Positions 10,252 to 41,224 of a DNA stretch of 64,000 bases are shown here, in pieces. Each line of letters starts with the position of its first letter. Within the stretch, counting starts at the first letter, position 1. The stretch comes from Escherichia phage fDHCT2. A program made the translations under genes and the position numbers. The notes under the pieces were generated by a model. It did no database searches. It was given only the letters and a program-made list of their open reading frames with translations, and was not told where the DNA came from. Where the stretch lies: sequence record OR427838.1, one strand, 5' to 3'.

Positions 10252-13200
10252 ATGGCCGATATTTTAAAACCTGCATTCCGTGCTACATCCGGACTCGATG
10301 CTGCGGGCGAGAAAGTTATCAATGTTGCCAAAGCCGATTACAATGTATTAGATGATGGCGTCAACGTTGAATTCTTTATAGATGAGAACACCATCCAGGC
10401 GTACGACGAGACGCGCGGATATAAGAAAGGGTTTGCAGTAATCCATGACCAACGTATCTGGGTTGCTCAACGTGATATCGCTGCACCAGCCGGAACTTTT
10501 GTGCCTGGTTATTGGACCGCTACCCGTACTGACCCTAAATGGATTACCGTAGCGTCTCCTACACGCCAGCTGGCTTCCGGTGAATATATTGCGGTGGATT
10601 CTGCTGCTAGCTTTACTACATTTACCCTGCCTCCGAACCCTACTGACGGTGATACAATCGTAATCAAGGATATTGGTGGTCGTGTAGGTTATAATGAAAT
10701 TAAGCTCCAGTCTAGTTCTGCTCCAGGCGGCGGTAATCAGAAAATTGTTCGTTTTGGTAATCAGTTCACTGAGACCTTAATTACGAAGCCTTTTTCTTAT
10801 AATATGATTATCTTTGCCAACCGTTTATGGCATTTCTGGGAAGCAGCTAATGAAGAACGTGGTATTCGTGTAGAACCGAACACCGCTCAGTTCCAATCAC
10901 AAGCGGGTGATAACGTTTTGCGCCGTTATACTTCAGGTGCAGTAATTAAGTTTACTCTTCCTAAGTATGCGAACCAAGGCGATATGATTAAAACCGTTGA
11001 TATTGATGGTTTAGGAAGTAAGTTCCATTTAATCGTTGAAACGTTTGATGCTTCATCTTCATTAGGTAAGCTCGGCCAACATAGCATGGAATTCCGTACT
11101 TCCGGTGATGGATTCTTTGTTTATAACTCTACTGAAAAATTATGGTATGTTTGGGACGGTGATCGTCAAACTCGTTTACGCGTAATTCGTGACGATGTTG
11201 AACTCTTGGCTAACGAAAGCGTTATTGTTTTTGGCCCTAATAATACAACACCGCAGACGATTAATATCACTTTACCTACAGGCGTAGCCCAGGGTGATGT
11301 AGTTAAGATTGCTCTGAACTATCTCCGTAAAGCTCAGACGGTAAATATTAAGGCCGCTGTAGGAGATAAAATAGCTTCTTCGGTTCAATTGCTCCAGTTC
11401 CCTAAACGTTCTGAATATCCGCCAGATACTGAATGGGTATTGAATGATGTATTGACCTTCAATGGTAACTTAAGTTATACTCCGGTTATTGAACTGAGTT
11501 ATATTGAAGACTCCACTACAGGTGGCAAATATTGGGTTGTTGCTCAGAACGTTCCTACTGTAGAACGTGTAGATTCTAAAGATGATTTAACCCGTGCTCG
11601 TCTTGGTGTTATTGCTCTGGCGTCTCAGACCCAAGCAAACGTCGACCATGAAAATAATCCTGAAAAAGAACTGGCTATCACCCCACAGACTTTAGCCAAT
11701 CGTGTAGCTACCGAATCACGTCGTGGTATTGCTCGTATTGCTACTACTGCTCAGGTAAACCAGAACACAACTTTCGCGTTCCAGGACGATTTGATTATTT
11801 CTCCTAAGAAATTAAACGAACGTACTGCAACCGAAACTCGTCGTGGTGTTGCTGAAATTGCTACGCAAGTTGAAACTGATGCCGGTGTTGATGATACAAC
11901 CATTATCACTCCTAAGAAGCTACAGACGCGCCAGGGAACTGAAAGCCTGTCTGGTATAGTAAAATATGTATCTACCACAGGAACCACTCCTGCGGACTCC
12001 AGAGCAACTGTAGGTACTAACGTTTATAATAAGAATACAACTACTTTAGTTATTTCTCCTAAAGCTTTAGACCAGTATAAAGCCGACCAAAATAACCAAG
12101 GTGCTGTATATCTTGCTACGCAAGCCGAAGTTAATGCGGGTGCTACTAACCCAGGTTTTAGTAACTCGGTTGTCACACCTGAAACATTAGGTGCTCGTCG
12201 TTCTACTGATACTAATCATGGTTTAATTGAAATTGCTACGCAAGCAGAGACTGATACTGGAACTGATTATACTCGTGCGGTAACGCCTAAGACGTTAAAT
12301 GACAGGAATGCTACTCAAACACTTACTGGTATTGCTCGTATTGGTACTCAAGTAGAATTTGATGCAGGTGTATTAGATAATGTTATTTCAACTCCGTTGA
12401 AAGTTAAAACAAGATTTAATGATACTGCTAGAACTTCTGTCTCAGCAGCCAGTGGTTTGATTGAATCAGGAACCTTATGGAACCATTATACACTAGATAT
12501 CCGTGAAGCAAGTAATACTCAACGTGGTACAGCTCGTTTGGCGACCCAAACTGAAGTTAATACTGGTACCGATGATAAAACAATCATCACTCCGCTTAAG
12601 CTTCAAGCTAAAAAGGCTACCGAAAACGCTGAAGGTATTATCCAACTCGCTACTCAGGCCGAAGTTATTGCGGGTACGATAAGTAATAAAGCGTTTAGTC
12701 CCAAGCATTACAAATATGTCGTCCAACAGGAAAAATCCTGGGAAGCTACTTCTGCTCGTAGAGGATATGTTAAATTAACCACAGGTACCGCCACTTGGGA
12801 AGGCGATGATACTAATGGCTCTGTTGCTAACCTGGCTAAATTTGAAGACGATGGTTTTGCTATTTCACCACTTCAGATGAACACCGCATTAACTCACTAT
12901 CTTCCTATTAAAGGTAAGGCTTTTGACTCCGATAAATTGGACAACCTGGATAGCTCTCAGTTCGTCAGGAGAGATATCGACCAAATAGTTGAAGGAACAT
13001 TAACCCTTCGTAAAAACATCAGAGTGGATGGCCAGTTGGCTACAGGCGGTACCGGTGAATTTGGTGGTTCTTTAGCAGCTAATAGTACATTTACCCTCCG
13101 TAATACAGGAACGGCTACTCGTATAATATTTGAAAAAGGTCCTCAAACAGGAACTAACCCTGTTCAATCTATGAGTATTCGCGTATGGGGTAACCAGTAC

Positions 13201-14151
13201 GGCGGTGGTTCTGATACATCCCGTTCTACGGTATTTGAAGTCGGCGATGAAACATCTAATCACTTTTATTCTCAACGCAATAAAGATGGTAATATAGCAT
13301 TTAGCATTAATGGTACTGTAATGCCAATAAATGTTAATGCTTCAGGCTTGATGAATGTGAACGGCGTTGCAACATTTGGTCGTTCAGTGACTGCACAGGG
13401 CGAATTTATAACCTATAGTGCAAACGCATTTAGAGCTATTAGTGGACAGTACGGGTTCTTTATTCGTAATGATAACTCGAACATCTATTTCATGCTTACA
13501 AATGCAAATGACCAGACTGGTGGCTTTAACGGATTAAGACCATTAGCTATTAGTAATACATCTGGCCAAGTAACGATTGGTGAAAGCTTAATCATTGCCA
13601 AAGGTGCTACTATAAATTTGGGTGGTTTAACAGTTAACTCGAGAATTCGTTCGCAAGGTACTAAACCCGCTGACCTTTATTCGAGAAAACCAAATGCTGA
13701 TAACACCGGGTTTTGGTCTGTTGACGTTAATGATTCAGCCACATATAATCAGTTCCCTGGTTATTTTGAAATGGTCGAAAAAGTTAACGAAGTAACAGGA
13801 TTGCCTTACTTAGAACGTGGTGCAGAGATTAAATCCCCTGGCACATTGACCCAGTTTGGTAATACCCTGAATTCGTTATACCAAGATTGGATTACTTATC
13901 CTGCTAATGCCAACGCACGTACTACTCGTTGGACCCGTACATGGCAGCAAAGTAAAAATGCATGGTCGGGTTTTGTTCAGGTGTTTGATGGCGGTAACCC
14001 TCCTCAACCTTCTGATATCGGCGCCCTTCCGGCGGATAACGCTTCGATGAGTAACTTGACCATTCGTGATTGGTTACGTATTGGTAACGTTCGTATAGTT
14101 CCTGACCCGGTAACTCGTTCTGTTAAATTCGAATGGATTGATACACCATAA
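10252..14151 (+). CDS. 34: Long tail fiber proximal subunit gp34
   Basis: 1299 aa; T4 gp34 about 1289; internal fibre repeats; late promoter motif upstream. Confidence 0.92.
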   Translation: MADILKPAFRATSGLDAAGEKVINVAKADYNVLDDGVNVEFFIDENTIQAYDETRGYKKGFAVIHDQRIWVAQRDIAAPAGTFVPGYWTATRTDPKWITVASPTRQLASGEYIAVDSAASFTTFTLPPNPTDGDTIVIKDIGGRVGYNEIKLQSSSAPGGGNQKIVRFGNQFTETLITKPFSYNMIIFANRLWHFWEAANEERGIRVEPNTAQFQSQAGDNVLRRYTSGAVIKFTLPKYANQGDMIKTVDIDGLGSKFHLIVETFDASSSLGKLGQHSMEFRTSGDGFFVYNSTEKLWYVWDGDRQTRLRVIRDDVELLANESVIVFGPNNTTPQTINITLPTGVAQGDVVKIALNYLRKAQTVNIKAAVGDKIASSVQLLQFPKRSEYPPDTEWVLNDVLTFNGNLSYTPVIELSYIEDSTTGGKYWVVAQNVPTVERVDSKDDLTRARLGVIALASQTQANVDHENNPEKELAITPQTLANRVATESRRGIARIATTAQVNQNTTFAFQDDLIISPKKLNERTATETRRGVAEIATQVETDAGVDDTTIITPKKLQTRQGTESLSGIVKYVSTTGTTPADSRATVGTNVYNKNTTTLVISPKALDQYKADQNNQGAVYLATQAEVNAGATNPGFSNSVVTPETLGARRSTDTNHGLIEIATQAETDTGTDYTRAVTPKTLNDRNATQTLTGIARIGTQVEFDAGVLDNVISTPLKVKTRFNDTARTSVSAASGLIESGTLWNHYTLDIREASNTQRGTARLATQTEVNTGTDDKTIITPLKLQAKKATENAEGIIQLATQAEVIAGTISNKAFSPKHYKYVVQQEKSWEATSARRGYVKLTTGTATWEGDDTNGSVANLAKFEDDGFAISPLQMNTALTHYLPIKGKAFDSDKLDNLDSSQFVRRDIDQIVEGTLTLRKNIRVDGQLATGGTGEFGGSLAANSTFTLRNTGTATRIIFEKGPQTGTNPVQSMSIRVWGNQYGGGSDTSRSTVFEVGDETSNHFYSQRNKDGNIAFSINGTVMPINVNASGLMNVNGVATFGRSVTAQGEFITYSANAFRAISGQYGFFIRNDNSNIYFMLTNANDQTGGFNGLRPLAISNTSGQVTIGESLIIAKGATINLGGLTVNSRIRSQGTKPADLYSRKPNADNTGFWSVDVNDSATYNQFPGYFEMVEKVNEVTGLPYLERGAEIKSPGTLTQFGNTLNSLYQDWITYPANANARTTRWTRTWQQSKNAWSGFVQVFDGGNPPQPSDIGALPADNASMSNLTIRDWLRIGNVRIVPDPVTRSVKFEWIDTP
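11650..12740 (+). repeat. Intragenic tandem protein repeats within gp34 (about 40-aa units, pattern RRG.A.IAT....V..G.D....ITP..L)
   Basis: At least 7 repeat units visible in translation and as recurring DNA strings (cgtcgtggt..attgctac). Confidence 0.7.
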
Positions 14152-14159: not shown

Positions 14160-15284
14160 ATGGAAAGATTTATGGCTGAATTTGGACAAGATTACGTTCA
14201 AATTCCTGTACTATCTGAAAATAATGCCGTTAGTTATAAACTTAGTATAGCAGGGAGCTGTACTAAGTCTACTAAAAAGGCTTATATCAAATTTCAAGAT
14301 GAGGACTTCGGTCCTCAGAATTTCCAATCTGGCCTAAATTTGGTTGAAATAGACCCAACAAATAACACAATAGTAACTACAAAATCATACGCATTTACCA
14401 AAGACCATGATGTTATTTCCCAAGCGTTTATAACTTATATTTCATCTATACCCGCTGGTAGAATTGTTTGCTTTATTTCTTCTGGTAAATTAAACGCCTC
14501 ACAGATATTAATTGATTGGTTTAGAGCTTCCGGTTCTACAGCATTTCCGGATAAATGGCTTATTGATAAAGTGGATACTTCTTATTCAGCTTTTTACGTT
14601 TCAGGAAGAAATGCTATTGTAATGGAACATGTGCTTTATAACGACGGCGCTTTGGTAGAAGACGTTTCTACTCCATTAGAAGTCGTTTATGACAATTTTA
14701 ATGATGTAGGAGGAACTGGGTTCCCTGTTAGAGTCATTGAAGATGAAAACACTTACTATAGTGGAGCTACTCAAGAAATTAAAAGGTTTCCTACCAATTC
14801 CGCTATAACTCCTTGTGCCGGTTATAATATGGCCCCTGGAGATTTCTTTTATCTTAAATTCCAAATGACCTATGACCAGGCTTTAAAAGATTTAGGGACG
14901 ACCCAGATGTCCATACGATTTTTTAATGGCCAAGAAATGCTTCAATCCACTGATATCAATATTCCTGTAGGAGCAGGCTCTCCACCGGCAGGCGCATGGA
15001 TGACTTTTGAGCGCGTAATAGAAGTTCCGCCAAATGCCAATGGTTTTACATTATATTGTAGAAAAACTGTCTCAGGCGGAGTAGGAGGTGTTAGGAATGT
15101 TATGTTTGGTGAAATAGCTAGACCTGAAGATACCCCTAAATCCGCTGAAATCGGTGTTAATGGTATTCGTATGAGCTATGGTACCGAAACCCGTTCAATG
15201 GGTAATGTTATTGCACAATTGAATGACAAATCATCTGGTAACGCAGGTAAAGTATTTGTTCAAGAATTTAAAGAAAAATATTAA
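14160..15284 (+). CDS. 35: Long tail fiber hinge/connector gp35
   Basis: 374 aa (T4 gp35 about 372); position after 34. Confidence 0.85.
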   Translation: MERFMAEFGQDYVQIPVLSENNAVSYKLSIAGSCTKSTKKAYIKFQDEDFGPQNFQSGLNLVEIDPTNNTIVTTKSYAFTKDHDVISQAFITYISSIPAGRIVCFISSGKLNASQILIDWFRASGSTAFPDKWLIDKVDTSYSAFYVSGRNAIVMEHVLYNDGALVEDVSTPLEVVYDNFNDVGGTGFPVRVIEDENTYYSGATQEIKRFPTNSAITPCAGYNMAPGDFFYLKFQMTYDQALKDLGTTQMSIRFFNGQEMLQSTDINIPVGAGSPPAGAWMTFERVIEVPPNANGFTLYCRKTVSGGVGGVRNVMFGEIARPEDTPKSAEIGVNGIRMSYGTETRSMGNVIAQLNDKSSGNAGKVFVQEFKEKY

Positions 15285-15340: not shown

Positions 15341-15988
15341 ATGGCTGATTTAAAATTAGGCTCAACCGCCGGAGGTTCCGTTATATGGCACCAAGGCAAC
15401 TTTCCGCTGACGCCGGTATCAAATGATATTTTATATAAAACCTACAAAATCTATACCGAATTTAATAAGCCCCAAGCTACAGATAACGACTTTGTTTCTA
15501 AGGCAGCCGGAGGTACATATAAAGGTACTGTTAATTTTGAAAAAGGTATAACTTTTAACGACTCTGCCGGGTATGCTATTAAATTGGGTGCCAGAGAAGG
15601 CGGGCAACCTTTTACCGCTTCATTTAAGATTAAAGGGTCTTTTGGCCTTGAAACTGAAACGGGGACCCCATTTGTAATCTTCAACCCGAGCACTACAGTA
15701 GGAGCTAACCGTCTTACAGTAATGGGTGATATCCTTGGTCGTCAAATTAAAGACGAATCAGGTCGAGTGTTTTCTCCAGGGAATGCTCCGACAAAAGCCC
15801 AGGTAGGATTAAGTGATGTGGATAACGCAAAACAGGTCCAAATAAATAATAGTAACATACAATCTATGGCTGGCGTTCTTTCAGCCCCGAATTTCATATC
15901 TAGGAGCCCAGGTACATTGAACGAACACGTTCCTCGTATTGACCAGGTTGTTCTTAGAGGTACATCTGAAGATTTTGGATATTATTAA
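15341..15988 (+). CDS. 36: Long tail fiber distal connector gp36
   Basis: 215 aa (T4 gp36 about 221); late promoter and terminator upstream. Confidence 0.85.
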
Positions 15989-15996: not shown

Positions 15997-18900
15997 ATGG
16001 CTACTTTAAAATCGATACAATTTAAAAGAAGTAAAACACCAGGAGCCAAGCCTACTGCAGCTCAGTTAGATGAAGGCGAACTGGCTATTAACTTGCGTGA
16101 CCGCACTATTTTTACCAAGTCAGACCAAGGACAGATTATTGATTTAGGTTTTGCTAAAGGTGGTACTGTCGACGGCGATGTGACTATTAATGGAACTTTA
16201 CGCATTAACGGTCCATTAAACAATTTTGGAAACTTTTCTACAAGCGGGTCGATTACAGCGGGCACTAGTATTTCGGGCCAAACTTTTAGAGCGTTGCAAG
16301 GCTCGTTTTATGCAAGGGCACCAAACGACGCATCGAATGCCCATTTATGGCTTGAAAATGCCGATGGTGTTGAACGGGGTGTTATATATGCTCGGCCTCA
16401 AACTACAACCGCTGGTGAAATACGTCTTAGAGTTAGACAAGGAACCGGAAGCACTATTAATAGTGAATTCTATTTCCGTTCTATAAACGGCGGTGAATTT
16501 CAAGCCAACCGTATTTTAGCATCAGATTCGTTAGTAACTAAACGCATTGCAGCTGATACAGTTATCCACGGTGGCAAAGCCTTTGGTGTATATGATACGG
16601 ATTCATTAGTTAATTATGTATATCCAGGCACCGGCGAAACAAATGGTGTAAACTATCTTCGTAAAGTTCGTGCTAAATCCGGCGGCACTATGTGGCATGA
16701 ACTTTGCACTGCCCAACTAGGCCAAGCCGATGAAATGTCTTGGTGGACAGGTAATACCCCACAGTCAAAACAGTATGGTATTCGTAACGATGGCCGAATG
16801 GCTGGCCGTAATAGCCTTGCATTAGGTACATTCACTACAGATTTCCCGTCTAGCGATTATGGTAACGTCGGTGTAATGGGTGATAAGTATCTTGTTCTCG
16901 GTGACACTGTAACTGGTCTGAAATATATTAAACAATATGTTTATGATTTAGTTGGTGGGGGTTATTCAGTTGCTTCTATTACTCCTGATAGTTTCCGTAG
17001 TACTCGTAAAGGTTTATTTGGACGTTCAGAAGACCAAGGCGCTACATGGATTATGCCAGGCACGAATGCTGCATTTTTATCAGCCCAAACTCAGGCTGAC
17101 GGGAATACAGCTGGTGATGGTCAGACACATATTGGTTATAACTCTGGTGGAAAAATGTCACACTATTTCCGCGGTAGAGGTCAAACCAATATTAACACCC
17201 AAGAAGGTATGGAACTTAACCCAGGTATTCTTAAACTAGTAACCGGTGCAAATAATGTAATGTTTTATGCTGATGGTGGTATTACATCCACTAAGCAGCT
17301 TTCAATTTATAATGGTGTTTATCTTGCAGCTAATAACTCAACCGCAGGTTTGACTTTTTCGGCAACTACCACTATTGATGGCACCAAACAAATTCTTTGG
17401 GAAGGTGGTACTCGAGCAGGCCAGAATAAGAGTTATGTAACTGTTAAAGCATGGGGTAATTCATTTAACGCCACTGGCGATAAATATCGTGAAACTGTAT
17501 TTGAAGTTAGTGACGGACAAGGATACCATTTTTATTCTCAACGTGGTGCGCCTACAGGTGACGAAACTATCGGCCCTGTATTAATGCAAGTTTCAGGTTC
17601 TTTAAATGCAAGAGGAACATTAAACGCCGGTGCCAATCTTTATGTGGGAGGATTGAGTACACATGAAGGTGCTGTGACCATGAATAATGGGCTTAATTTA
17701 ACTGGTGGGGCTTCAATTAACGGACAAGTTAAAATGGGTGGTACCGCTGATGCATTAAGAATTTGGAATGCCGAATATGGTATGATTTTCCGACGTTCGG
17801 AATCCGGTTCTTCTTCTTCATTCCATCTTATTCCTACCCTCCAGAATGCTGGCGAAAACGGTGGAATAAGTGACCTTCGCCCGCTTTCCATTAATTTGGC
17901 TAATGGCACGGTTCTAATGGGTAATAAAAGTGCTGGGTATGGTCCACTTTTCACAGTCGACAACGTAAGTAAATTTGTTCGGACCGACTGTAGACTGCGC
18001 GTTAATATGGATTCCGATGCCATTGTAATAAATGCTTCATCCCAGGCGTCATCTAACTTTATCCAGGGACGTAAAGCAGATGTTACAAAATGGTATCTCG
18101 GTATTGGCGACGGCGGCAACGTTGTTCGTTTACATAACTATACCTACTCCCACGGTATTGCATTAAACTCTGACACTGTTGATATAACCAAGGCACTTAA
18201 AATTGGTTCCGATGTTCGTATTGGTCCTGACGGTAATATTACAGGCAGCACTGCATTAGAAAACTTTAAAAACCTGAACACAACGTTAGACCGTAAAGTT
18301 AACACAGGCGGGTGGTCGGGTGGTGCTACTACAGGTTGGTATAAATTTGCTACTGTAGAAATGCCACAATCGACAGGTACAGCATCCTTTAAAATATCAG
18401 GTGGGTCTGGGTTTAATTTTAAAAGTTATGGTCAGGCTTCAATAGCCGAAATAGTCCTTAGAACCGGCAATAATAACCCTAAAGGCCTTAATGCTACGCT
18501 GTGGAATAGAACTTATGAAGCCATTTCCCAGATTGCTTCGGTTAATACAAGCGAAGATATCTATGATATTTACGTTTACATTGGTGGGTATTCTAATTCT
18601 TTGGTGGTAGAATATACCTGCAGCAGCAATAGTAAAGTAACCGTAGTGGGTATTAATAGCGGTGTCCAGCCTTTGGTAGAAACATTACCTGAAGGTCATG
18701 TTGTAGGTAAATCTGTAAGAATGCTGAACAACCTTGACGGAATGTTTGCTGCCGGCGAATCAGATATTGTTACACGTGGTGAATACGTCGCTAATAACAA
18801 AAAAGGTATGCGTATTAAATCTAGTGGTAATGATATAGATTCTAATGCCGCTTTAATTAGAAACGATGGCGGAAGTTTTTATATTTTATTTACGGATAAA

Positions 18901-19899
18901 AATACCGCAGAAAACCCAAATGCAACCGATGGTGATTGGAATGGCTTAAGACCTTTCTCTATCAACATAGCTGATGGCCGCGTTGGTATGAACCATGGGT
19001 TAAATATTACTGGCGGTGGTCTGAACGTGGCAGGTGGCCTTAATGTTACCAGTGGTAATACTAGTTTAGGTAATATCTCATCTCGTGTGGTTGCAGGTTG
19101 GCGCGGTGCCTCTGGTTGGGGTGATAACTCAGACGCAATGAAATCTAAAATCACCTTTATGGCAGACCACGGTGATTTATCTAATTCAGGTAGTTATTAT
19201 CCTATTGTCGGTGCATACAGTAACTATGGTTCGGCGGGTTATCGTCAAACCTTTGAATTTGGTTGGGTCGGTTCCGGTACCACCGCTGGATGGCGTGACG
19301 GTATTATTCGTATACGTGGCGACAATGCCAACGGCCAACAGGCAAGATGGCGCTTTACAATGGACGGTCTTTTAGATTGCCCTGGTAAAGTACAGATGCC
19401 ACAAACAAGTGCCTTTGGCGTCAACACAACTAACTCACTCGGTGGAAGTAGTATAACATTTGGCGATAGTGATACCGGTATTAAGCAAAACGGTGATGGT
19501 TTACTTGATGTTTATGCGAACAGTGTACAAGTATTCCGTTTCCAAAACGGCGATTTGTACTCGTATAAAAATATAAATGCTCCTAACGTTTATATTCGCT
19601 CTGATATTCGTTTGAAATCTAACTTCAAACCAATTGAAAACGCTCTCGAAAAGGTTGAACAGCTTGATGGTTTAATCTATGATAAAGCTGATTATATTGG
19701 TGGTGAGGTTGTTCACACTGAAGCAGGTGTTATTGCACAGAGCCTGGAAAAAGTATTACCTGAAGCTATTCGTGAAGTTGAAGATATCAAAGGTAATAAA
19801 GTTCTGACCGTTTCGACTCAGGCCCAAGTGGCGCTGTTACTTGAAGCGGTTAAAACCCTGTCGGCTAAAGTAAAAGAACTTGAAGCTAAATTAAATTAA
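15997..19899 (+). CDS. 37: Long tail fiber distal subunit gp37 with C-terminal intramolecular chaperone (peptidase S74-like) domain
   Basis: 1300 aa; C-terminal SDIRLKSNF...[13 protein letters not shown]...[15 protein letters not shown]... matches self-cleaving chaperone domains of endosialidase and T5 L-shaped fibre. Confidence 0.88.
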
Positions 19900-19908
19900 A
19901 TTAAGAAA

Positions 19909-19924
19909 AGGGCCTTCGGGCCCT
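19909..19924 (+). terminator. Stem-loop after gene 37 (weak terminator or RNA stability element)
   Basis: AGGGCC-UUCG-GGCCCU hairpin; no strong U run. Confidence 0.35.
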
Positions 19925-19935
19925 AAGGATTTATT

Positions 19936-20724
19936 ATGGCAATCGTAGGATTACCCGGTTGGGTCGGCCAATCTGCAGTTGACGAAACAGGTCAACGTTG
20001 GATGGATGCAGCAATGCGTGATGTTCGTGTAGCTGTTCCAGGTTGGATGGGTTCGATGGCTAACCAATCAAAAGAAATTTACTTATCTATAGGGGCTAAT
20101 CATAACTATGATAGGAATACCCTTATAAACTGGATGAGAGCCCAAGGCAGTGCGCCTGTAGTTATCACAATTACCGGCAACATAGTATCAAATAGCCGCG
20201 GAAACCCGTGTCTGGAATTCCCTAGCAACTTACCTAATGCATATATTCAACTTACTATTAATAGCGGTGTAACTGTTTATGGGCGAGGAGGTAACGGTTC
20301 TACTAATGGTTCTGCAGGCCAAGCAGGCGGTACAGCAATCCATAACGCTGCCGGAACCAAATTGCGTATTCGAAACAATGGTGCTATCGCTGGCGGTGGT
20401 GGTGGCGGTGGTGCTGTATCGTTACAGAACAGCTATCCAACTAACGGTACCTGTGGTGGTGGCGGTGGTAGACCATTCGGCGTCGGTGGGAAAATAGGGT
20501 CTGATGCCATATTGTCCGGTGCAAACGCATCTCTAACTGCCGCCGGTTCAGGTGGTACCACGGTCCAATACGGTGCAGGTAACGGCGGTAATGTTGGTGC
20601 TGGCGGTGGACGAGGATGGGGCAAAAACGTTTATACCTCTGCAGGTGGTTCTGCTGGAGCTGCCGTTACAGGCAATGCTCCTTCTTGGCAGAACGTAGGA
20701 ACCATCTACGGAAGCCGTGTTTAA
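19936..20724 (+). CDS. 38: Tail fiber adhesin gp38 (T2-type, glycine-rich motifs)
   Basis: 262 aa; conserved N-terminal part then multiple poly-Gly segments (GGGGGGGAV, CGGGGG) separating short variable segments. Confidence 0.8.
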   Translation: MAIVGLPGWVGQSAVDETGQRWMDAAMRDVRVAVPGWMGSMANQSKEIYLSIGANHNYDRNTLINWMRAQGSAPVVITITGNIVSNSRGNPCLEFPSNLPNAYIQLTINSGVTVYGRGGNGSTNGSAGQAGGTAIHNAAGTKLRIRNNGAIAGGGGGGGAVSLQNSYPTNGTCGGGGGRPFGVGGKIGSDAILSGANASLTAAGSGGTTVQYGAGNGGNVGAGGGRGWGKNVYTSAGGSAGAAVTGNAPSWQNVGTIYGSRV

Positions 20725-20761: not shown

Positions 20762-21415
20762 ATGGAACCAAAAGTAGGATTTTCATTATCAGACCTACTT
20801 TTTGGACTTCTTGATAGAATTTTTAAAGATACTTCTTCCGGGAAAGTAGTTTTTTCCCGGGTCCTAGTCGTAATATTATTGTTCTTTATGGCACTGGTTT
20901 GGTATAAAGGCGAGTATATTCTAAACTTTTACAAAGAGACAACTTATGCCTCTTATACTGAAATGATTAGACAAGACCAGGACAATAGATTTAAAATTGC
21001 GGCTATCGAGCAGCTCCGAATAGTGCATTCTTCTTCAGGCGCGGACTTCACAGCAATATATTCTTTTAGACCGACCAACATGAATTATTTTGTGGATATG
21101 GTTGCTTACGAGGGTAAATTACCGGAAACGGTAGACGCAAAAAATACGGGAGGGTTTCCGATTGACAAAACGTCAGTAGAGTATATGGCGGGAGTTAACG
21201 GGAATTACTTTGAATCAAGTACCGAAACTGTATTCCTTCCTACAAAGAAGAAAACACAATTCACGTATATGTTTTCATGCCCGTTTTTTAATTTGGATAA
21301 CGTCTACGCCGGCTCGATATCGTTGTACTGGTATGATATCAAACCGGATTTAGGATTTCCTAGACTTTCGTCTATGTGTGGTCAAGCCGGGAGGACATTA
21401 GGTCGAACACGTTAG
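20762..21415 (+). CDS. t: Holin T
   Basis: 217 aa (T4 T is 218); N-terminal TM segment; late promoter motif upstream; position after 38. Confidence 0.88.
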   Translation: MEPKVGFSLSDLLFGLLDRIFKDTSSGKVVFSRVLVVILLFFMALVWYKGEYILNFYKETTYASYTEMIRQDQDNRFKIAAIEQLRIVHSSSGADFTAIYSFRPTNMNYFVDMVAYEGKLPETVDAKNTGGFPIDKTSVEYMAGVNGNYFESSTETVFLPTKKKTQFTYMFSCPFFNLDNVYAGSISLYWYDIKPDLGFPRLSSMCGQAGRTLGRTR

Positions 21416-21687
21416 AAATTGGAGGTATACATCATTAAATAACGGTGTATATCTTCATATCCTTCATTAAATTGCTCTATAAGAGTATCACGTTCATCTT
21501 CAGTTAAAGACTTAAATAATTTGTTATAAGACAAACCATTAAGTTCCTTTCCATGTTCATTACGAATACCTAATTCATTCAAAAAGGCAATAAACTCATC
21601 ACGACGTTGCATGATGTCTTCACAATCCGTTTTAATCAAAATGGAAACAATAGTAGCAATTTCGGAAACGATTTCAATTTTAGTCAT
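21412..21687 (-). CDS. asiA: Anti-sigma-70 factor AsiA
   Basis: 91 aa; strong match to remembered T4 AsiA (VSILIK, FIAFLNE, DTLIEQFNEGYE..YRYL). Confidence 0.85.
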   Translation of the reverse strand: MTKIEIVSEIATIVSILIKTDCEDIMQRRDEFIAFLNELGIRNEHGKELNGLSYNKLFKSLTEDERDTLIEQFNEGYEDIHRYLMMYTSNF

Positions 21688-29061: not shown

Positions 29062-30030
29062 TTAGTATTTGTATTCGTTTGCGAACTGTTCAGTGACGTC
29101 TTCTAGAACTTCATAATAACATACACGCATTTTAGCATCACCGTAATCGACCGGAATACTAACAACATCACGTGGGTTAACTTTACACGAAACTACTTTA
29201 CAGCTTGAGTTACCAAAATGCCTGATATAGCTACGAGAGCAAACATGCAGACCTGTTGAACAAGTTACTTCGTCGTCATCATTTACACGCGAACGAGGCA
29301 TTTTAACTGGCTTACCTGGCGAGTTATCAAACGTGCCGGTACGGCAGTCGGTGTAATCGGAGTTAACTACCTTCCACGTAATAAAGTGGCCATCTTCAGT
29401 GATTTTGATATCGTTTGCAACCAGGAAGTCGAACAGACGCTGTACAGCTTTTTCGCTTGGGTTTTCTAACAGATTCTCAAGGAACGGCAGGTAGAATTCG
29501 AAGTCTTCACCATTTTCCATTGAGGTGATAATACGGTCAATCAACCCTGAACGCAATTCGATACCTTGATAAACCAGACGTCCACCTTCAATACGAACGT
29601 TACCTTTAACGAAAGCCTTAACAGCTTCTTTAATGGAAATCAGTTTAATCGCATCATCGAAACGAGATTCTTTAAGAGCCTGTACGATGGCATCAAAATG
29701 TTTGTTCTTATTAGTGGTATTCCATACTGTACGACCTTCAGTGATGGATACGAATTTAGAACTCGCATTCCAAATAATTTCAGGACGAGAACCACCAATA
29801 GTAGCTTCAACAGGAACTACACGAGGCTCGTTAGGAACTGTTACTTTGATATTTCCGGTAATAACCACTTGCGAACGTTTAGCTTCTTCAGCATTTTTCA
29901 GGACTTTACGAATGGTATCAACCGAAACACCATACCAGTCAGCTAGTTCTTGCTGGGTATAATTACCAGATTTATAGAGGGAAACTACTTTCTCTTGTTC
30001 AGATTTAGCCAGGCACTTAATATTGTACAT
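29062..30030 (-). CDS. rIIB: rIIB membrane-associated protein
   Basis: 322 aa; near-colinear with remembered T4 rIIB (MYNIKCL, GNYTQQELADW, FEFY.PFLENLLENPS). Confidence 0.88.
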   Translation of the reverse strand: MYNIKCLAKSEQEKVVSLYKSGNYTQQELADWYGVSVDTIRKVLKNAEEAKRSQVVITGNIKVTVPNEPRVVPVEATIGGSRPEIIWNASSKFVSITEGRTVWNTTNKNKHFDAIVQALKESRFDDAIKLISIKEAVKAFVKGNVRIEGGRLVYQGIELRSGLIDRIITSMENGEDFEFYLPFLENLLENPSEKAVQRLFDFLVANDIKITEDGHFITWKVVNSDYTDCRTGTFDNSPGKPVKMPRSRVNDDDEVTCSTGLHVCSRSYIRHFGNSSCKVVSCKVNPRDVVSIPVDYGDAKMRVCYYEVLEDVTEQFANEYKY

Positions 30031-30044
30031 AATATTTCCTTAGA

Positions 30045-32255
30045 TTAAGCCGCTTCCACGGCTTTCATGAATTTAACGATTTGAGCTACAGAAGCCTCGG
30101 TAATGGATGTTCCACGACGATACATGTAGTCCGAAACTAAATGGTAATCAGATTCAAACTGTACAGTCATTTTATCATTGTTACTTGAAGCATTATTGGT
30201 TAGCGTATTGAACGTCGTGTTACAGATTTTCTTGATAACGGAAAGCTTATCATCAGTGATATAACCATGGAAATTCATATAACGGAATATATCATAGAAA
30301 TTACTCAGACGAGTATATGCTTCAGACACCGGCTTGTCACTGAAATACTTAGTCATGAAACCAAGCTCAGGGAACTTAGCAATGATTTCAAGGTAATACC
30401 TTGCACGGGTATTACTACCAATGTAGTCATCAATATCTACCGCATCCAATGCTTCGGCATAAGCTTCTAATGTAGCTTCCATCAGGCATTCACATTGGCC
30501 TAACTTTTTAATCTTTTTGGCAATCTGAGGGCGAATGATATGGAATTCGGTAGCACCAATCAAATTAGCCATACGACACATGGTAGTGGTGTTGATGTCA
30601 AAGATACCATAAGCTTCATCCATTCCCATGATATCAGAACGACTACCAAACAATACGTACCCTGTAATTTCTTCTGCTTCGGCCGCAGTTAAGTACAGGG
30701 TTTCATTAGCCCAACGCCCGTCTTTAATGAACCAACGATAAGCACTTGGTGTTTTAGGACGAGGTTCGGATGAACGAACAGTAACCGGAATCCACGGCTT
30801 AACAATTTTATTCAGTTCAGAGACTTTATAAAAATGAATTGTGTCACCTTTAAAAAGTTCTTTAACCTTTTCGAGTTGTTGCATTTGCAGCATTGAATTC
30901 GGGTCGACAAAAATAAGGTCAGTTCCGTATTTAGGAACATTGTTCTCTTTAACAATTTTCTTAGCCGAAGCACTGCTGTCCATTGCCAGAGCCCAAAGTC
31001 CTCGAACTAGCGGTACGCGACCCTTTTCATCATCATAAACAACATGGATTTCTTTCTTATTAATGCCTAATAAACCACTAAGTCCTGCCACCGAAGAAGT
31101 ATTACCACTCGGCTTAATTCGTTTCAAACGTGGGTCTGAAACGATTTCATAAACAACGCCCAAATTAAGAAGGTCGTTTTGAAGTGTATATTTTTGATAC
31201 AGTTTTTCAAAGGTTAATTTTTCTGTAGTAAACAGGCTAGTTCCACCTTTTTTGGTAAGATAGTCACGAGCACTGTAACCAAGGTTAGAAAGGTCACGAT
31301 AAACATGGCGTGGATTATCAGATTCAACCCATTCCTTCGTATCATTTTTAAAGACCACCGCATCCAGTGCTTCGATACGGGTTGCGATATTTTCCATCGT
31401 ACGTTTATCAAGAGACAGCACTTCACGAGACGGAGCAATATCCAGTGAACCCATAGGGAACTTAATATAAACTACATCATGGCGAGTACGCATCCATGTG
31501 CCTTTATTATAAGCAGAATCCAATGGATAGACAATACCACCATAAACTGCATAAAGTCCTGAACGTTCGAAGTTGCCATAATTTGTAGTGGTTACAGGAT
31601 AGTAATCGTCAAATTCAGGGAAATAATCAACTTCAACACCGTCTACATCGCCAAGACCAATGAAAGGCCTCATGATATAACGAACTTCAGTTTCAAACTT
31701 ACGGAAATCCTCTTCGTCAACAGGAACTGTGATTTCGATACCCGTTTTATCACCAGGCTGCATAGGTTCTACGAAAGTAGGTTTAATCTGCGGTCCATCA
31801 CCGTCCATATACGCTACATATCCACGAACTTCGCCATTGTGCCATGAGGTGATATTAAACGTTTCGGTATAACTGAACGGAGATTTTGAACCAAGGCCAA
31901 AACCACCGATGAAATCGTTAGAAGCGGTTTTGGACGACGCGAAATAAGAGTTATACAAACCTGTTTCGTTTTCATCACCACGAATTTGGAAATCACTCAT
32001 GCCTGGCCCGAAGTCACGGCATACAAAACGAGGGTCCAGTTTACCAGGAACCTGTACTTTCCAACGTTCTTTATTACCATTCAGAATATGAGCATCAATC
32101 ATGTTGGTAATTAGTTCACGAACTACAGCACGCACCTTATTACTATAAAGGTCTGATGAAAGAATTTTAAAGACCTTAGGCGAGGCCTGGATAGTAAAGC
32201 CTGTGGACTTAGCGCCGTTACCAATGATTTGTTCTTTTTCGGTTTCAATAATCAT
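30045..32255 (-). CDS. rIIA: rIIA protein
   Basis: 736 aa (T4 rIIA about 725); GHKL-type ATPase-like N-terminal blocks; adjacent to rIIB. Confidence 0.9.
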   Translation of the reverse strand: MIIETEKEQIIGNGAKSTGFTIQASPKVFKILSSDLYSNKVRAVVRELITNMIDAHILNGNKERWKVQVPGKLDPRFVCRDFGPGMSDFQIRGDENETGLYNSYFASSKTASNDFIGGFGLGSKSPFSYTETFNITSWHNGEVRGYVAYMDGDGPQIKPTFVEPMQPGDKTGIEITVPVDEEDFRKFETEVRYIMRPFIGLGDVDGVEVDYFPEFDDYYPVTTTNYGNFERSGLYAVYGGIVYPLDSAYNKGTWMRTRHDVVYIKFPMGSLDIAPSREVLSLDKRTMENIATRIEALDAVVFKNDTKEWVESDNPRHVYRDLSNLGYSARDYLTKKGGTSLFTTEKLTFEKLYQKYTLQNDLLNLGVVYEIVSDPRLKRIKPSGNTSSVAGLSGLLGINKKEIHVVYDDEKGRVPLVRGLWALAMDSSASAKKIVKENNVPKYGTDLIFVDPNSMLQMQQLEKVKELFKGDTIHFYKVSELNKIVKPWIPVTVRSSEPRPKTPSAYRWFIKDGRWANETLYLTAAEAEEITGYVLFGSRSDIMGMDEAYGIFDINTTTMCRMANLIGATEFHIIRPQIAKKIKKLGQCECLMEATLEAYAEALDAVDIDDYIGSNTRARYYLEIIAKFPELGFMTKYFSDKPVSEAYTRLSNFYDIFRYMNFHGYITDDKLSVIKKICNTTFNTLTNNASSNNDKMTVQFESDYHLVSDYMYRRGTSITEASVAQIVKFMKAVEAA

Positions 32256-32262
32256 ATTTTTC

Positions 32263-32466
32263 TCAATTCAGGTTACGTTTAAAAAGGTCTGCTACTTCAA
32301 GGAGCTCGTCCTTAGTAGCGATGTCGTTGAGTATTTTATATCTGATTTCTTTAAAGCGTTCTTTAAAATCCTCAGCTGCATTGATATCAAAAAATCGTTG
32401 GATTAACCGGAATTCTTTATGGACGGCTTTATCGAACAAATCAATATTCACTTTAAAGTTTGTCAT
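32263..32466 (-). CDS. Hypothetical small protein
   Basis: 67-aa ORF upstream of rIIA. Confidence 0.45.
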   Translation of the reverse strand: MTNFKVNIDLFDKAVHKEFRLIQRFFDINAAEDFKERFKEIRYKILNDIATKDELLEVADLFKRNLN

Positions 32467-32803
32467 TTTTAACTACCTCATGTTGAACATATTCTCTGGT
32501 AGAACCGAGTTCAGCCAGAATTCTTCTCATAGAACCCATTGTACTTTTGTGCTCTCTGTGGCGATACAATATCTCCAGAACCTTTTCCTGGACAACAGGA
32601 GAGAGCGCCTGGTTATCTTTAATCTTTAAGGCAATAGATTTTACAGCCTTAAGATATTCTAGCCCCTTACCGCTTGTAATCACTACTCCTTCATCTTTAC
32701 AGTTACGAATAGCGGTTTCCATAAAGGATAAAGCCAGGTTGTCAGTGTTCACTATACTGTTATCTTGCATAATCATATTCTCACCTCTAGATAATCCTAT
32801 CAC
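32453..32803 (-). CDS. Hypothetical protein
   Basis: 116-aa ORF. Confidence 0.45.
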   Translation of the reverse strand: MIGLSRGENMIMQDNSIVNTDNLALSFMETAIRNCKDEGVVITSGKGLEYLKAVKSIALKIKDNQALSPVVQEKVLEILYRHREHKSTMGSMRRILAELGSTREYVQHEVVKNDKL

Positions 32804-32829
32804 AGTTTTGTTATGTTGTAAACCCCGAA

Positions 32830-32847
32830 AAGGGCCTTGCGGCCCTT
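32830..32847 (-). terminator. Stem-loop/terminator downstream of gene 39 region
   Basis: AAGGGCC-GCAA-GGCCCUU hairpin. Confidence 0.45.
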
Positions 32848-32852
32848 AATTA

Positions 32853-33002
32853 TTCAATTTTGTAGACTTGTCCTCGAACTTGATAAAATTCGCCTTCCCA
32901 GGTTTCTACCATAATGGTCACATACTCTGCGAACAAAGGTCTCTTCTCGGCCCAGAGATATCCAAATTCACCGGTGGCTAGCGTTATCCAGTACTTTCTC
33001 AT
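32853..33002 (-). CDS. Putative 49-aa protein (not in ORF track)
   Basis: Perfect AGGAGA SD 5 nt before ATG at 33002; between gene 39 and a hairpin terminator. Confidence 0.3.
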
Positions 33003-33045
33003 AAAGTCTCCTAATTGTATGGCACTCATGTACCATACATATTTA

Positions 33046-34863
33046 TTACGACATCCAGGCCTTACGGAGTTGAGGGTCGTTCCCGAGGAGCATTTCGAAC
33101 TGTTCTTTCCAATCTTCAGGCAATTGAACTACATCAAATTTAGGGTCTTGAATCATTCGACGGTATTCAGCCTTCTCAAGAGAACCTAGTCCTTTGATAT
33201 AACGAATAGAATGTTTTGGTAGAGAGTCCTTAGCTTTGGTATAACTAGGGACATCATAGAACCATTCTTGTTCTTTACCAATCTGAGCAATAATTACAGG
33301 AGTTTTACAGAATCGTACTCGGCCTTGTTCGAATAATTCAGGCCATTGACTAAAGAAGGCTAACAATGACGGATAAATCGAGCCTGTACCATCCACATCG
33401 GCATCAGTCATAATAGCGATATTACGATAGTTAGTTTTATCTGCAGGTTCGCCAATAACCAGTCCAGTGATTGCACAGATATCAAACAATTCTTTGTTCT
33501 TCATGATATCAACTGCAGGCATACCCCAGGTATTCATAACCTTACCACGTAATGGATAACCGCCTTGAAGGTCTTTATTACGTACTTCAATGAAAGGACC
33601 CATTGCTGAATCACCTTCAGTCAAGAACAGAGTTGTATCGGCATCTTTACCATACATATTGGCTTTAATATGCTTATGGACTTTAGCTTTCAAAGCTTTC
33701 TTAGCGGCTTTTGTTTCTGCTGCTTTTTCGGCTGCTAATTTACGTGCTAAAGCAGCTTCGACGATAGGCATAATCAACCCATCGACCTTAAGAATCATCG
33801 ATGCAATTTTCTTAGCATCAATTTGGATATGGCTACGAATCTCGCCAAACGGGGAGGTCAAACGCTCTTTAGTCTGGGAATCAAAACGCATATTACTCAT
33901 ATCACGAATGAACATTACCATCGTAAGGCATTCTTTAACACGAGCCTTAGTTACTTCAATTCCACGATATTTCTTTTTAATACCAGGCAGAAGGTGCTCA
34001 CAAATGTCATCGAATACACATTCAACGTGGTGTCCACCATTCTTGGTATGGATATTATTTACATACGTCAGTTGACGGAACCCATCCGGAGAAGGAGTAA
34101 ATGCCATCGAAACATTATCAGTTTCTTGGATTACAAAGTCATCACCAAATTGCTTAGCATACTTTTTAAAGTTGCCATCTACTTTTTTACCATTAAAAGT
34201 AAATTGGATATCAGGATAAATTACAGCTAGGGTTTTAAGACGATCTAAAGTAATATCCAGATAAATTTGGGTCAAACTATTTTCTTCGAAATGGTTAAAG
34301 TCTGGAGTGAATATAACCGAAGTGCCTTTATCTTTGGATTTCTTAGTAGTCCAACCTTTGTTTTCCATTCCGTTAGAACAGTTAACAGTAATCTCATTCT
34401 CGCCATCAGAGGTGATGCCTGTGAACAAAACAGAGAAGATATTAGTTAAACTACTACCGACACCATTCATGCCGCCTGTCTTACGCTCAGCGTCATCTCC
34501 AAAGTTACCACCAGCCTTTGGAATAGTCCATGCAGCTACAGGACCCGGAATTTGTTCCCTGTTTTGGTCAGTAACCATTGCTTGTGGAATACCACGGCCA
34601 TTATCGGAAACTGAAACCTGATTATTCTTAATTCGGACATCAATTTTGTTTGCGAATTTAAAATTAGTACGAATAGCTTCATCGACAGAGTTATCAATGA
34701 TTTCGTCAATTAATTTAACTAGCCCTGGAACATAGTTCACCTGGGTAAAATTACCAAACAGGAATCGACCGTGAGCTTCATTAGCACTTGAGCCAATATA
34801 CATCCCACTACGTTTTTTGATATGTTCAATGTCGGACAGTACTTTAATTTCATTCTTAATCAT
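33046..34863 (-). CDS. 39: DNA topoisomerase II large subunit (GyrB-like), continuous 605-aa form
   Basis: ATPase N-terminus; TOPRIM block DADVDG; the C-terminal region that T4 encodes as separate gene 60 is fused here. Confidence 0.9.
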   Translation of the reverse strand: MIKNEIKVLSDIEHIKKRSGMYIGSSANEAHGRFLFGNFTQVNYVPGLVKLIDEIIDNSVDEAIRTNFKFANKIDVRIKNNQVSVSDNGRGIPQAMVTDQNREQIPGPVAAWTIPKAGGNFGDDAERKTGGMNGVGSSLTNIFSVLFTGITSDGENEITVNCSNGMENKGWTTKKSKDKGTSVIFTPDFNHFEENSLTQIYLDITLDRLKTLAVIYPDIQFTFNGKKVDGNFKKYAKQFGDDFVIQETDNVSMAFTPSPDGFRQLTYVNNIHTKNGGHHVECVFDDICEHLLPGIKKKYRGIEVTKARVKECLTMVMFIRDMSNMRFDSQTKERLTSPFGEIRSHIQIDAKKIASMILKVDGLIMPIVEAALARKLAAEKAAETKAAKKALKAKVHKHIKANMYGKDADTTLFLTEGDSAMGPFIEVRNKDLQGGYPLRGKVMNTWGMPAVDIMKNKELFDICAITGLVIGEPADKTNYRNIAIMTDADVDGTGSIYPSLLAFFSQWPELFEQGRVRFCKTPVIIAQIGKEQEWFYDVPSYTKAKDSLPKHSIRYIKGLGSLEKAEYRRMIQDPKFDVVQLPEDWKEQFEMLLGNDPQLRKAWMS

Positions 34864-34915
34864 GTTATTTCCTCATGTAGTAGGAGAATATTATCCCATT
34901 TCACTTAAAGCATAA

Positions 34916-34931
34916 AAGGGCCGAGGCCCTT
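34916..34931 (-). terminator. Rho-independent terminator
   Basis: GGGCC-UCG-GCCC hairpin followed by UUUUAUG on minus strand. Confidence 0.5.
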
Positions 34932-35190
34932 AATCAAATCGAATGGTCGACTTTTTAAAGAATAACCCAGAACAAACTGTTCCTTCAACCCTTTTACCTG
35001 TCGGCCCTACAGCAATAAAGCCTGTACGCTGGAAATCATCTTCAGAACAGCCGAATAAGTTGTATCCTGTGATTTGGATTTGTTCGTAGCCATTTGCATC
35101 CAATACACGGGTAGCATTATCGGCATCAGTACAACCAACCAACGAAACTGCTAGTACAAGAGCCGCAATAGAACGATTAACATATTTCAT
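34930..35190 (-). CDS. Putative lipoprotein
   Basis: Signal peptide with lipobox LVGC. Confidence 0.55.
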   Translation of the reverse strand: MKYVNRSIAALVLAVSLVGCTDADNATRVLDANGYEQIQITGYNLFGCSEDDFQRTGFIAVGPTGKRVEGTVCSGLFFKKSTIRFD

Positions 35191-35196
35191 AATTTC

Positions 35197-35373
35197 TCAC
35201 TTAGTTAGCAGGTCATAGAACCCGCCGTTAACATGTTTAGGAGCTGAAACTAACCGAACAGCCAGCCGATGGCAATCAGGGCAAACATCATTATCTCTTT
35301 CAGAGATTTTCTTGATTTTTTCGTATTCTTTTGCACAGTCTTCGGATTGGCATTTGTAATCATAAAGTGGCAT
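35197..35373 (-). CDS. Zinc-ribbon protein, FmdB-like (58 aa, not in ORF track)
   Basis: MPLYDYKCQSEDCAKEYE...CPDCH; ATG one nt after upstream stop. Confidence 0.45.
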   Translation of the reverse strand: MPLYDYKCQSEDCAKEYEKIKKISERDNDVCPDCHRLAVRLVSAPKHVNGGFYDLLTK

Positions 35374-35374
35374 A

Positions 35375-35761
35375 TTATTCCTTAAAGTGGGCTTTCAACA
35401 TCTGGTAAACGGTCCAGGCTTCAGAATTATTGGAGATAGTGATTTTGGTCAAAGGGAATTCGCTTGGCTCAGATGGAGCTGCGTCTTCAGACTGGTCTTC
35501 GTCTTCACTGTCAACTTCAACCATTTCTGTAAAGAATTTACGCTCACTAGCGTATATAACCATATCTTTATTATCGCCGTAAACCAGGTCGAAGTTGATT
35601 ACGCATCCGTTTGAAATTTTAACCGGGGAAAAACCTTCACCTTCAATAATAACATCGGCTACAATATTATTGATATCTCTACGACGGAATTCAGCTTCTG
35701 CCGCATCATCTTTAAAATAGTACCATTTACCTTTTTCAAATTCGAGTTCTTGATTAAGCAT
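35375..35761 (-). CDS. Hypothetical acidic protein (start refined to ATG 35761)
   Basis: Track ORF 35375..35854; 8-nt ATGCTTAA overlap with upstream gene. Confidence 0.45.
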   Translation of the reverse strand: MLNQELEFEKGKWYYFKDDAAEAEFRRRDINNIVADVIIEGEGFSPVKISNGCVINFDLVYGDNKDMVIYASERKFFTEMVEVDSEDEDQSEDAAPSEPSEFPLTKITISNNSEAWTVYQMLKAHFKE

Positions 35762-35972
35762 TGTAAGTTTCCTTCCAGAAGTCAGTACCTTCAGCAGTGA
35801 TTTCACGGAACACTGCATAGATAGGGTTTTTATCACCTTGATTTTCGTATACATAAACCGACGTTAAATGAGAAAACGTATCAGAATGTTCCTTTTGAAC
35901 CACGATTAAATCAGGGTTGAACAGAACATCTTCAAATTCTTCACGAGTAGAGTTCACAGTAACTTTAGCCAT
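35754..35972 (-). CDS. Hypothetical small protein
   Basis: 72 aa; GAGGA SD; early promoter element upstream. Confidence 0.45.
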   Translation of the reverse strand: MAKVTVNSTREEFEDVLFNPDLIVVQKEHSDTFSHLTSVYVYENQGDKNPIYAVFREITAEGTDFWKETYNA

Positions 35973-35990
35973 TTTATTTTCCTCTCGTTT

Positions 35991-36032
35991 GTTGATAGGG
36001 CAATAATATCACTACCCTACCATAGTGTATAC
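35991..36032 (-). promoter_or_regulatory. Early-type promoter element (variant -35 GTATAC)
   Basis: Conserved downstream box TGATATTATTGCCCTATCAAC. Confidence 0.45.
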
Positions 36033-36046
36033 TGTTTTTTTAAACT

Positions 36047-36613
36047 TTATGCAAAATGAATATCAGCGTACTCAACGATAAAGCTCTCAGGAACAACCTT
36101 AAAAGTTCCAAGGAACACGATATTATACAATTTGACACCTTCTTCAACCCACTGGTCGGTGATGTAACCGGACATACTAGTGGTTTCATAAGTCGGACCG
36201 TACTTGCATTTGTATTCAAACGGTTTAGGTGAAACGAAAAAGACACCTTTACCTAATTTCCATTTGAAATCAACGCCGACATGAGATTGGTCAATAGTTT
36301 CAACGTCTTGAGCTACTACGCCACGGATATCATTGCTTTCACATACATACCCATCATGGGATTCAACTTCTTCAACTACAGGAGCGATGTATCCGGTAAA
36401 TTCAGTCGATTCCAAGAATTTAGCACGCACATAACCGAATTGAGTTTCAGTCTGGGGATTTTTAGGAATGATACGAACTTTTACTTCATAATTTTCTTCA
36501 CTGACACCTTCTTTAAGTTGGATGCTAACAACTTCAACTAAACTGCCCGCAGCTTTTGAACGAGACTTTTTGGATACACGAACGATACTGCCGATATCGG
36601 AAATAGTAATCAT
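36047..36613 (-). CDS. Hypothetical protein, paralog pair member 1
   Basis: 188 aa; C-terminal block GYITDQWVEEGVKLYNIVFLGTFKVVPESF shared with next gene. Confidence 0.5.
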   Translation of the reverse strand: MITISDIGSIVRVSKKSRSKAAGSLVEVVSIQLKEGVSEENYEVKVRIIPKNPQTETQFGYVRAKFLESTEFTGYIAPVVEEVESHDGYVCESNDIRGVVAQDVETIDQSHVGVDFKWKLGKGVFFVSPKPFEYKCKYGPTYETTSMSGYITDQWVEEGVKLYNIVFLGTFKVVPESFIVEYADIHFA

Positions 36614-36655
36614 AATTTTTCTCTCTTGGTTAAAGGTTTATAATCCATGAGAGCC

Positions 36656-36684
36656 ATTATAACATGGCTCTCGATAAAGTAAAC
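36656..36684 (-). promoter_or_regulatory. Sigma-70 promoter GTTTAC-N17-TGT-TATAAT with palindrome around -10
   Basis: Inverted repeat gagagccat / atggctctc flanks the -10. Confidence 0.5.
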
Positions 36685-36686
36685 TA

Positions 36687-37744: not shown

Positions 37745-37759
37745 TTTGTTCTCCTCATG

Positions 37760-37800
37760 TTGATAGGGTAGATAATATCATGTCATGAGGAGAAGTAAAC
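37760..37800 (-). promoter_or_regulatory. Early-type promoter element
   Basis: GTTTAC-N17-TGA-TATTAT-CTACCCTATCAAC. Confidence 0.5.
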
Positions 37801-37804
37801 ACTT

Positions 37805-38715: not shown

Positions 38716-38722
38716 ATTTTCC

Positions 38723-40350: not shown

Positions 40351-40351
40351 G

Positions 40352-41086: not shown

Positions 41087-41113
41087 GATATTTTTCTCAT
41101 CTTACGGACGATT

Positions 41114-41155
41114 AGTTGATATGTCTATAGTATCACGGTACTCGATAAAGTAAAC
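41114..41155 (-). promoter_or_regulatory. Early-type promoter element
   Basis: GTTTAC-N17-TGA-TACTAT-AGACATATCAACTA. Confidence 0.5.
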
Positions 41156-41224
41156 ACTTTTTTGCTTTAAATTTTCGACGGTATAATGAATCAAGGACTT
41201 TGCCTTTCAATTAAACCGGGTGGT

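Follow-up and report, generated by a model that had tools for sequence, protein, structure and literature searches.

The long-tail-fibre tip of Escherichia phage fDHCT2 very probably follows the known T2-type design: a chaperone domain at the end of gp37 and a separate gp38 adhesin

The window, a stretch of 64,000 nucleotides from Escherichia phage fDHCT2 (sequence record OR427838.1), contained the long-tail-fibre cluster of a T4-like phage, of which every gene lies on the + strand. The genes for gp34 (10252-14151), gp35 (14160-15284), gp36 (15341-15988), gp37 (15997-19899), and gp38 (19936-20724) are followed, also on the + strand, by the holin gene t (20762-21415), and the assignments of the fibre genes agree with their PHROG matches. 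The open reading frame of gp37 encodes a 1300-aa precursor of the distal subunit of the long tail fibre (PHROG 1699, 'long tail fiber protein distal subunit', E = 0), and that of gp38 a T2-type tail-fibre tip adhesin of 262 aa. The gp38 gene is located directly 3' of gp37, which ends in an intramolecular chaperone (IMC), and 5' of the holin gene t, an order that was the same in 11 relatives. The backbone of the genome was 92-93% identical at the nucleotide level to JS98-like phages of the genus Dhakavirus, and the fibre genes were closest to those of IME341 and IME08 (~89% nucleotide identity over 81% of the query). In the region 30000-50000, which contains replication genes (rIIA, gp39, dda, gp41, gp61, and others), the nearest genomes were those of the Dhakavirus phages C6, QL01, WG01, and JS98, at just 92-93% nucleotide identity. 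Given this backbone identity, fDHCT2 may fall under the usual 95% species threshold.

Three Pfam domains were retrieved in gp37, namely gp37_trimer, Gp34_trimer, and Peptidase_S74. The first two, together with the solved structure of the S16 fibre tip (PDB 6F45), point to a trimeric state of gp37. Two segments of the protein, aa 426-552 (17272-17652) and aa 927-1029 (18775-19083), match the C-terminal region of gp34 of T4 (E ~5e-12; PDB 4UXE/5NXF; Pfam Gp34_trimer), which indicates that shaft modules are shared or duplicated between the proximal and distal half-fibres. A scan of gp37 and gp38 against NCBIfam, a library that does not cover these phage proteins, returned no matches.

The Peptidase_S74 domain (PF13884), which Pfam describes as 'chaperone of endosialidase', occupies the extreme C-terminus of gp37. 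The preliminary description had proposed that the end of this protein, from the Ser codon at 19600-19602 onwards, is a self-cleaving chaperone domain, and the profile search confirmed this to the exact position: the match begins at Ser1202 and covers aa 1202-1258 (profile positions 1-57 of 58), with an E-value of 2.3e-14 and a score of 53.8 bits versus a gathering score of 22, which is far above chance. The IMC as a whole comprises aa 1202-1300 (19600-19896), that is, the final 99 of the 1300 residues. Its conserved core consists of aa 1202-1258, beyond which a helix or coiled coil is predicted at the C-terminus. For gp37 aa 1152-1300, AlphaFold2 run on the single sequence placed three helices past the Ser residue, in a model of too low confidence (pLDDT 54, pTM 0.38) to bear on the fold. 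When the IMC was used as a tblastn query against the phage collection, 1465 records matched.

The catalytic residues expected of an S74 domain were present. Ser1202 (codon TCT, 19600-19602) is the predicted catalytic and scissile serine and the predicted first residue of the released chaperone, and Lys1207 (19615-19617), at position +5, is the predicted general base that activates it. In an alignment of T-even gp37 C-termini, Ser1202, Asp1203, and Lys1207 were invariant in all 11. Furthermore, the spacing between Ser and Lys equals that of Ser1264 and Lys1269 in pb1 of phage T5, in which Lys1269 activates the scissile Ser1264 and the substitution S1264A stops autoproteolysis (PMC4690869). A profile built from the 11 T-even C-termini matched the gp37 chain of the S16 structure (6F45_A), a phage fibre (8JOV), the autoprocessing domain of MYRF (7DC3), and the IMC of the GA-1 neck appendage (3GUD), whose released chain starts with SDERHK. 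The last 149 aa of gp37 themselves aligned with 6F45_A with an E-value of 2e-9, and the gp37 C-terminus including the IMC was 32% identical to that of the S16-like phage STML-198 over 188 aa.

The position of the cut can be predicted from these alignments. In S16, the last 113 residues of gp37 are an autocleaved IMC, the removal of which bares a docking surface, and the cleavage site DLNVS^SDRRIKK (^, scissile bond) has been aligned to DVYIR^SDGRLKI of the fPS phages (PMC7917993). The present alignment set IR^SDIRLKS of fDHCT2 on VS^SDRRIKK of S16, so that the predicted site in fDHCT2, exact to the residue as far as the alignment is, reads NVYIR^SDIRLKS. Based on the alignment with S16 and the fPS phages, the scissile bond would thus lie between Arg1201 and Ser1202 (codons CGC TCT, 19597-19602). 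The residue preceding the bond (P1) is Arg in fDHCT2, T2, and the fPS phages and Ser in S16. Upstream of it, the last ~56 residues of the mature protein (aa 1146-1201; 19432-19599) align to the gp37 construct crystallized for S16 (6F45_A).

By analogy with the homologues, gp37 would be made as a precursor of 1300 residues, of which Ser1202-Asn1300, the Peptidase_S74 domain, would act as an intramolecular chaperone, nucleating the trimerization of gp37 and the folding of its C-terminal beta-helix. In a properly folded trimer, Ser1202 would come to lie beside Lys1207 and be activated, whereupon the Arg1201-Ser1202 bond would be cut. The 99-residue chaperone would then leave and bare the base of the gp37 trimer. 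The part of the mature protein next to the cut (aa 1146-1201) would form an interdigitated beta-helix whose base receives gp38, as judged from its homology with S16 (PMC6851490). That fDHCT2 bears such a canonical T2/S16-type tip on the long tail fibre of a JS98-like (Dhakavirus) T-even phage, with IMC cleavage and gp38 docking as in the homologues, is considered very probable. Alternatively, the S74-like domain could be a degenerate remnant that escapes cleavage and remains part of the virion, with gp38 attaching elsewhere or serving as an assembly factor only, like gp38 of T4. The cleavage of gp37 in fDHCT2 is indeed a prediction from sequence, and several database records call homologous gp38 proteins a 'distal long tail fiber assembly catalyst'. 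However, the S74 core, its catalytic Ser and Lys included, is intact and invariant; in T2, which has a tip and an IMC of nearly the same sequence, gp37 is reportedly processed (PMC3157838); and gp38 of fDHCT2 displayed no similarity to gp38 of T4 in a tblastn search while being 88% identical to the adhesin of T2. A degenerate domain is therefore regarded as highly improbable.

The gene following gp37 was described beforehand as a T2-type gp38 with polyglycine motifs and short variable loops, and this was confirmed. Pfam returned GP38 (PF05268; E 1.5e-81) and Gp38_N (PF21721; E 5.7e-16), and the PHROG match was 2056 ('tail fiber protein; host specificity'). The protein aligned with the solved adhesin chain of S16 (6F45_D; E 9.5e-45) and with gp38 of phage PP01 (9V85; E 2e-44). 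It is 99.2% identical to gp38 of IME341 and 88.2% identical to gp38 of T2, from which it differs by 31 substitutions, and 761 records of the phage collection matched it as a query. The possibility of a T4-like chaperone acting in trans was considered and rejected, as tblastn of the fDHCT2 gp38 against the T4 locus gave no match and gp37 of T4 does not contain an S74 domain. Many database records, for instance those of T6 (MH550421), ime09, and Shf125875, label adhesin-type gp38 proteins 'distal long tail fiber assembly catalyst/chaperone'. This label, the T4 name carried over to an unrelated protein, is erroneous and potentially misleading.

Two regions can be distinguished in gp38. The first is the N-terminal attachment domain (aa 1-42; 19936-20061; Pfam Gp38_N) with Trp9, Trp22, and Trp37, which were invariant in all eight aligned adhesins, an S16-like one included. 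In the S16 structure, three conserved tryptophans of gp38 enter three equivalent pockets at the base of gp37 (PMC6851490; PMC7917993). As judged from the S16 structure and the genetics of T2, a single gp38 of fDHCT2 would likewise dock on the gp37 trimer (3:1) and determine the receptor; its N-terminal three-helix domain would place Trp9, Trp22, and Trp37 in the three equivalent pockets, one in each. The second region (aa 116-262; 20281-20721), delimited by its glycine content and the alignment, consists of glycine-rich motifs and hypervariable loops. Glycine accounts for 32% of its residues, against 22% for the whole protein, and runs of seven (aa 153-159), five (aa 174-178), and three (aa 223-225) glycines set apart short variable stretches. 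The glycine runs at aa 118-119, 131-132, 153-159, 174-178, 184-185, 217-218, and 237-238 were invariant across the eight adhesins, whereas the stretches between them vary. Homology with 6F45 suggests that aa 116-262 fold as a polyglycine-II sandwich that constitutes the specificity domain, and the hypervariable loops on this scaffold would bind the outer-membrane receptor of the host.

The loops also provide a clue to the receptor, which is the least certain step of the proposed mechanism. In line with the comparison suggested by the preliminary description, the loops of fDHCT2 turned out to be close to those of T2 in sequence and length and far from those of T6, the S16-like phage, and RB51. 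Indeed, two of them are almost alike in fDHCT2 and T2, namely AVSLQNSYPTNGTC versus AASLKNSYPTNGSC and KIGSDAILSGANASLTAAGSGGTTVQ versus KIGSDSILSGSNASLTDAGTGGTTFQ. T2 uses FadL and OmpF as receptors (PMC3157838); with gp38 loops so similar, fDHCT2 probably binds FadL and/or OmpF. Some of the 31 substitutions relative to T2 gp38 are situated in or beside the loops (A191S, A196S, A202D, S205T, V210F, and A236E), and these 31 substitutions could shift the receptor preference. The fibre may hence be built as described and yet recognize a receptor other than those of T2 (e.g., OmpC, OmpA, or Tsx) through its loop substitutions, some of which fall inside hypervariable segments; moreover, small loop changes are reported to alter the specificity of Ox2-type adhesins (PMC12892980). 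Such a switch seems rather unlikely in view of the T2-like loops, and the nearest gp38 proteins belong to phages that infect E. coli K-12 and B. For annotation, the locus can confidently be described as encoding a gp37 precursor whose chaperone is predicted to be self-cleaving (cut at R1201/S1202), followed by a T2-type gp38 adhesin, for which FadL/OmpF is the likely receptor. An annotation of gp37 and gp38 along these lines serves host-range prediction and fibre engineering, whereby swaps of gp38 or of its loops require a matching T2-type N-terminal attachment domain (PMC12892980).

The combination of a chaperone domain in cis with a separate tip adhesin had initially been put forward as an unusual fibre-tip architecture. 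This view did not hold. The gp37-gp38 junctions were compared for 11 phages with an adhesin-type gp38 beside gp37, representing five genera, namely Tequatrovirus (T2, CrRp10, fPS-90, RB51, slur13, and T6), Dhakavirus (IME341), Karamvirus (PG7 and PS49), Gelderlandvirus (the S16-like STML-198), and Nanhuvirus (LPCS28). With the fDHCT2 IMC as tblastn query, the domain was found directly 5' of gp38 in nine of the 11 panel phages. Its apparent absence in the Karamvirus phages PG7 and PS49 (tblastn, E<1e-3) reflected a limit of sensitivity, as Pfam found the S74 domain in both. Pfam detected Peptidase_S74 at the gp37 C-terminus of all nine phages submitted (E 1e-10 to 3e-16), the calls for IME341 and slur13 being based on tblastn. 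Both methods combined, an IMC directly 5' of gp38 was universal among the sampled relatives (11/11). Neither an S74 domain in gp37 nor an adhesin-type gp38 was found in T4 by tblastn and Pfam. The RB49-like phages form an exception, in that gene 38 is located elsewhere in the genome; gp37 of the RB49-like GEC-3S still possesses an S74 domain.

The literature agrees with these counts. The adhesin form of gp38 has been described as predominant in the T4 superfamily (Trojet 2011; PMC3157838), a source that also states that gp37 of T2 undergoes proteolytic processing before gp38 caps it, citing Drexler, Riede and Henning 1986. According to the authors of the S16 structure, most T-even phages bear a fibre of the S16 kind (PMC6851490). 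A novel or unusual combination with special consequences for host range is thus practically untenable: both elements are missing from the textbook phage T4, so that the tip looks odd when set against T4 alone, but the pairing occurs throughout the adhesin-type phages sampled from the five genera and has been described since 1986 as prevailing among T-even phages (PMC3157838, PMC7917993, PMC6851490). The tip of fDHCT2 is of the canonical T2-type design, whose biochemistry has been known since 1986 and whose structure since 2018. It represents no new fibre-tip design and has little import beyond its correct annotation.

Among the named systems, T2 shares with fDHCT2 the gene order 37-38-t and the place of the S74 domain, with identities of 92% for the gp37 tip, 77% for the IMC, and 88% for gp38. 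In its N-terminal and middle parts, gp37 is divergent (28-86% identity in blocks of 100 aa), and the two phages differ in their backbones, that of T2 being Tequatrovirus and that of fDHCT2 Dhakavirus. The T2 gp37/gp38 system is reportedly also linked with the name of Riede (1987). The fibre tip of S16 (PDB 6F45; Dunne et al. 2018) resembles that of fDHCT2 in its conserved Trp prongs and glycine-rich motifs and over ~190 residues of the gp37 C-terminus and IMC (32%), whereas its IMC is longer (113 versus 99 residues), its P1 residue is Ser instead of Arg, and its gp38 loops differ; the target of S16 is OmpC. The nearest sequences to the fDHCT2 fibre are those of IME341, IME08, and VR20 (Dhakavirus/Gaprivervirus). 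More distantly, the IMCs of the K1F endosialidase, T5 pb1 (PDB 4UW8), and GA-1 gp12 (3GUD) belong to PF13884 too and, as in fDHCT2, have an N-terminal Ser and a Lys at +5 and are C-terminal on a trimeric fibre or spike. In these three proteins, the mature C-terminus is itself receptor-binding or enzymatic, whereas in the T2-type fibre the freed end is a socket for a separate adhesin. Finally, T4 has a homologous gp34-gp37 shaft and the same locus layout, but the C-terminus of its gp37 (Collar/Phage_fiber, without S74) is itself the receptor-binding tip, and its gp38 is an unrelated trans chaperone of 183 aa, unlike gp38 of fDHCT2.

Within gp37, the mature tip and the IMC appear to have different affiliations. 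The mature tip (aa 1100-1201) was 96% identical to that of IME341, 92% to that of T2, and 47% to that of VR20, whereas the IMC (aa 1202-1300) was 97% identical to that of VR20, 84% to that of IME341, and 77% to that of T2. Hence, no single known phage matches the fibre throughout; an IME341/T2-like tip is joined to a VR20-like IMC. In addition, ~60 nt about the cleavage site (~19585-19650) were nearly invariant at the DNA level in all four phages. These patterns would fit a recombination of the IMC module independently of the mature tip that it folds, with an apparent crossover in the ~60-nt stretch at the cleavage site, a scenario for which the chances are judged about even. If true, T-even fibres would possess in the IMC a folding cassette that is portable and largely independent of its client, and the conserved DNA of the cleavage site would serve as a linker for recombination.

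A stem-loop, A-GGGCC-UUCG-GGCCC-U (19909-19924, + strand), is located in the 36 nt that separate genes 37 and 38, directly 5' of the Shine-Dalgarno sequence AAGGA of gp38 (19925-19929). T2 and CrRp10 (GAGGGC TTCG GCCCTC), T6 and fPS-90 (AGGGGC TTTG CCCCTT), and RB51 (GAGGGGC TTCG GCCCCT) have a hairpin at the corresponding position; in these five phages, the bases of the stem are altered while the pairing is preserved. The hairpin in its 81-nt context folded no better than shuffled sequences (z = -0.56). A role as terminator was rejected: the scan for terminators flagged the - strand only, and because the + strand lacks a run of T, the stem-loop is probably not a terminator. It is probably an element of RNA stability or processing instead. 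Hairpins with the CUUCGG motif are known from the intercistronic regions of T4. At the other side of the gap, fDHCT2 carries an extra ATTAA past the gp37 stop (19900-19904) in comparison with IME341, which lengthens an AAATT/AAATT repeat at the end of the gene and is probably a trivial case of slippage. Further downstream, the holin gene t (+ strand, 20762-21415) and an AsiA-like open reading frame (- strand, 21412-21687) are convergent and overlap by 4 nt (21412-21415), and this convergent layout is found in IME341 and VR20 as well.
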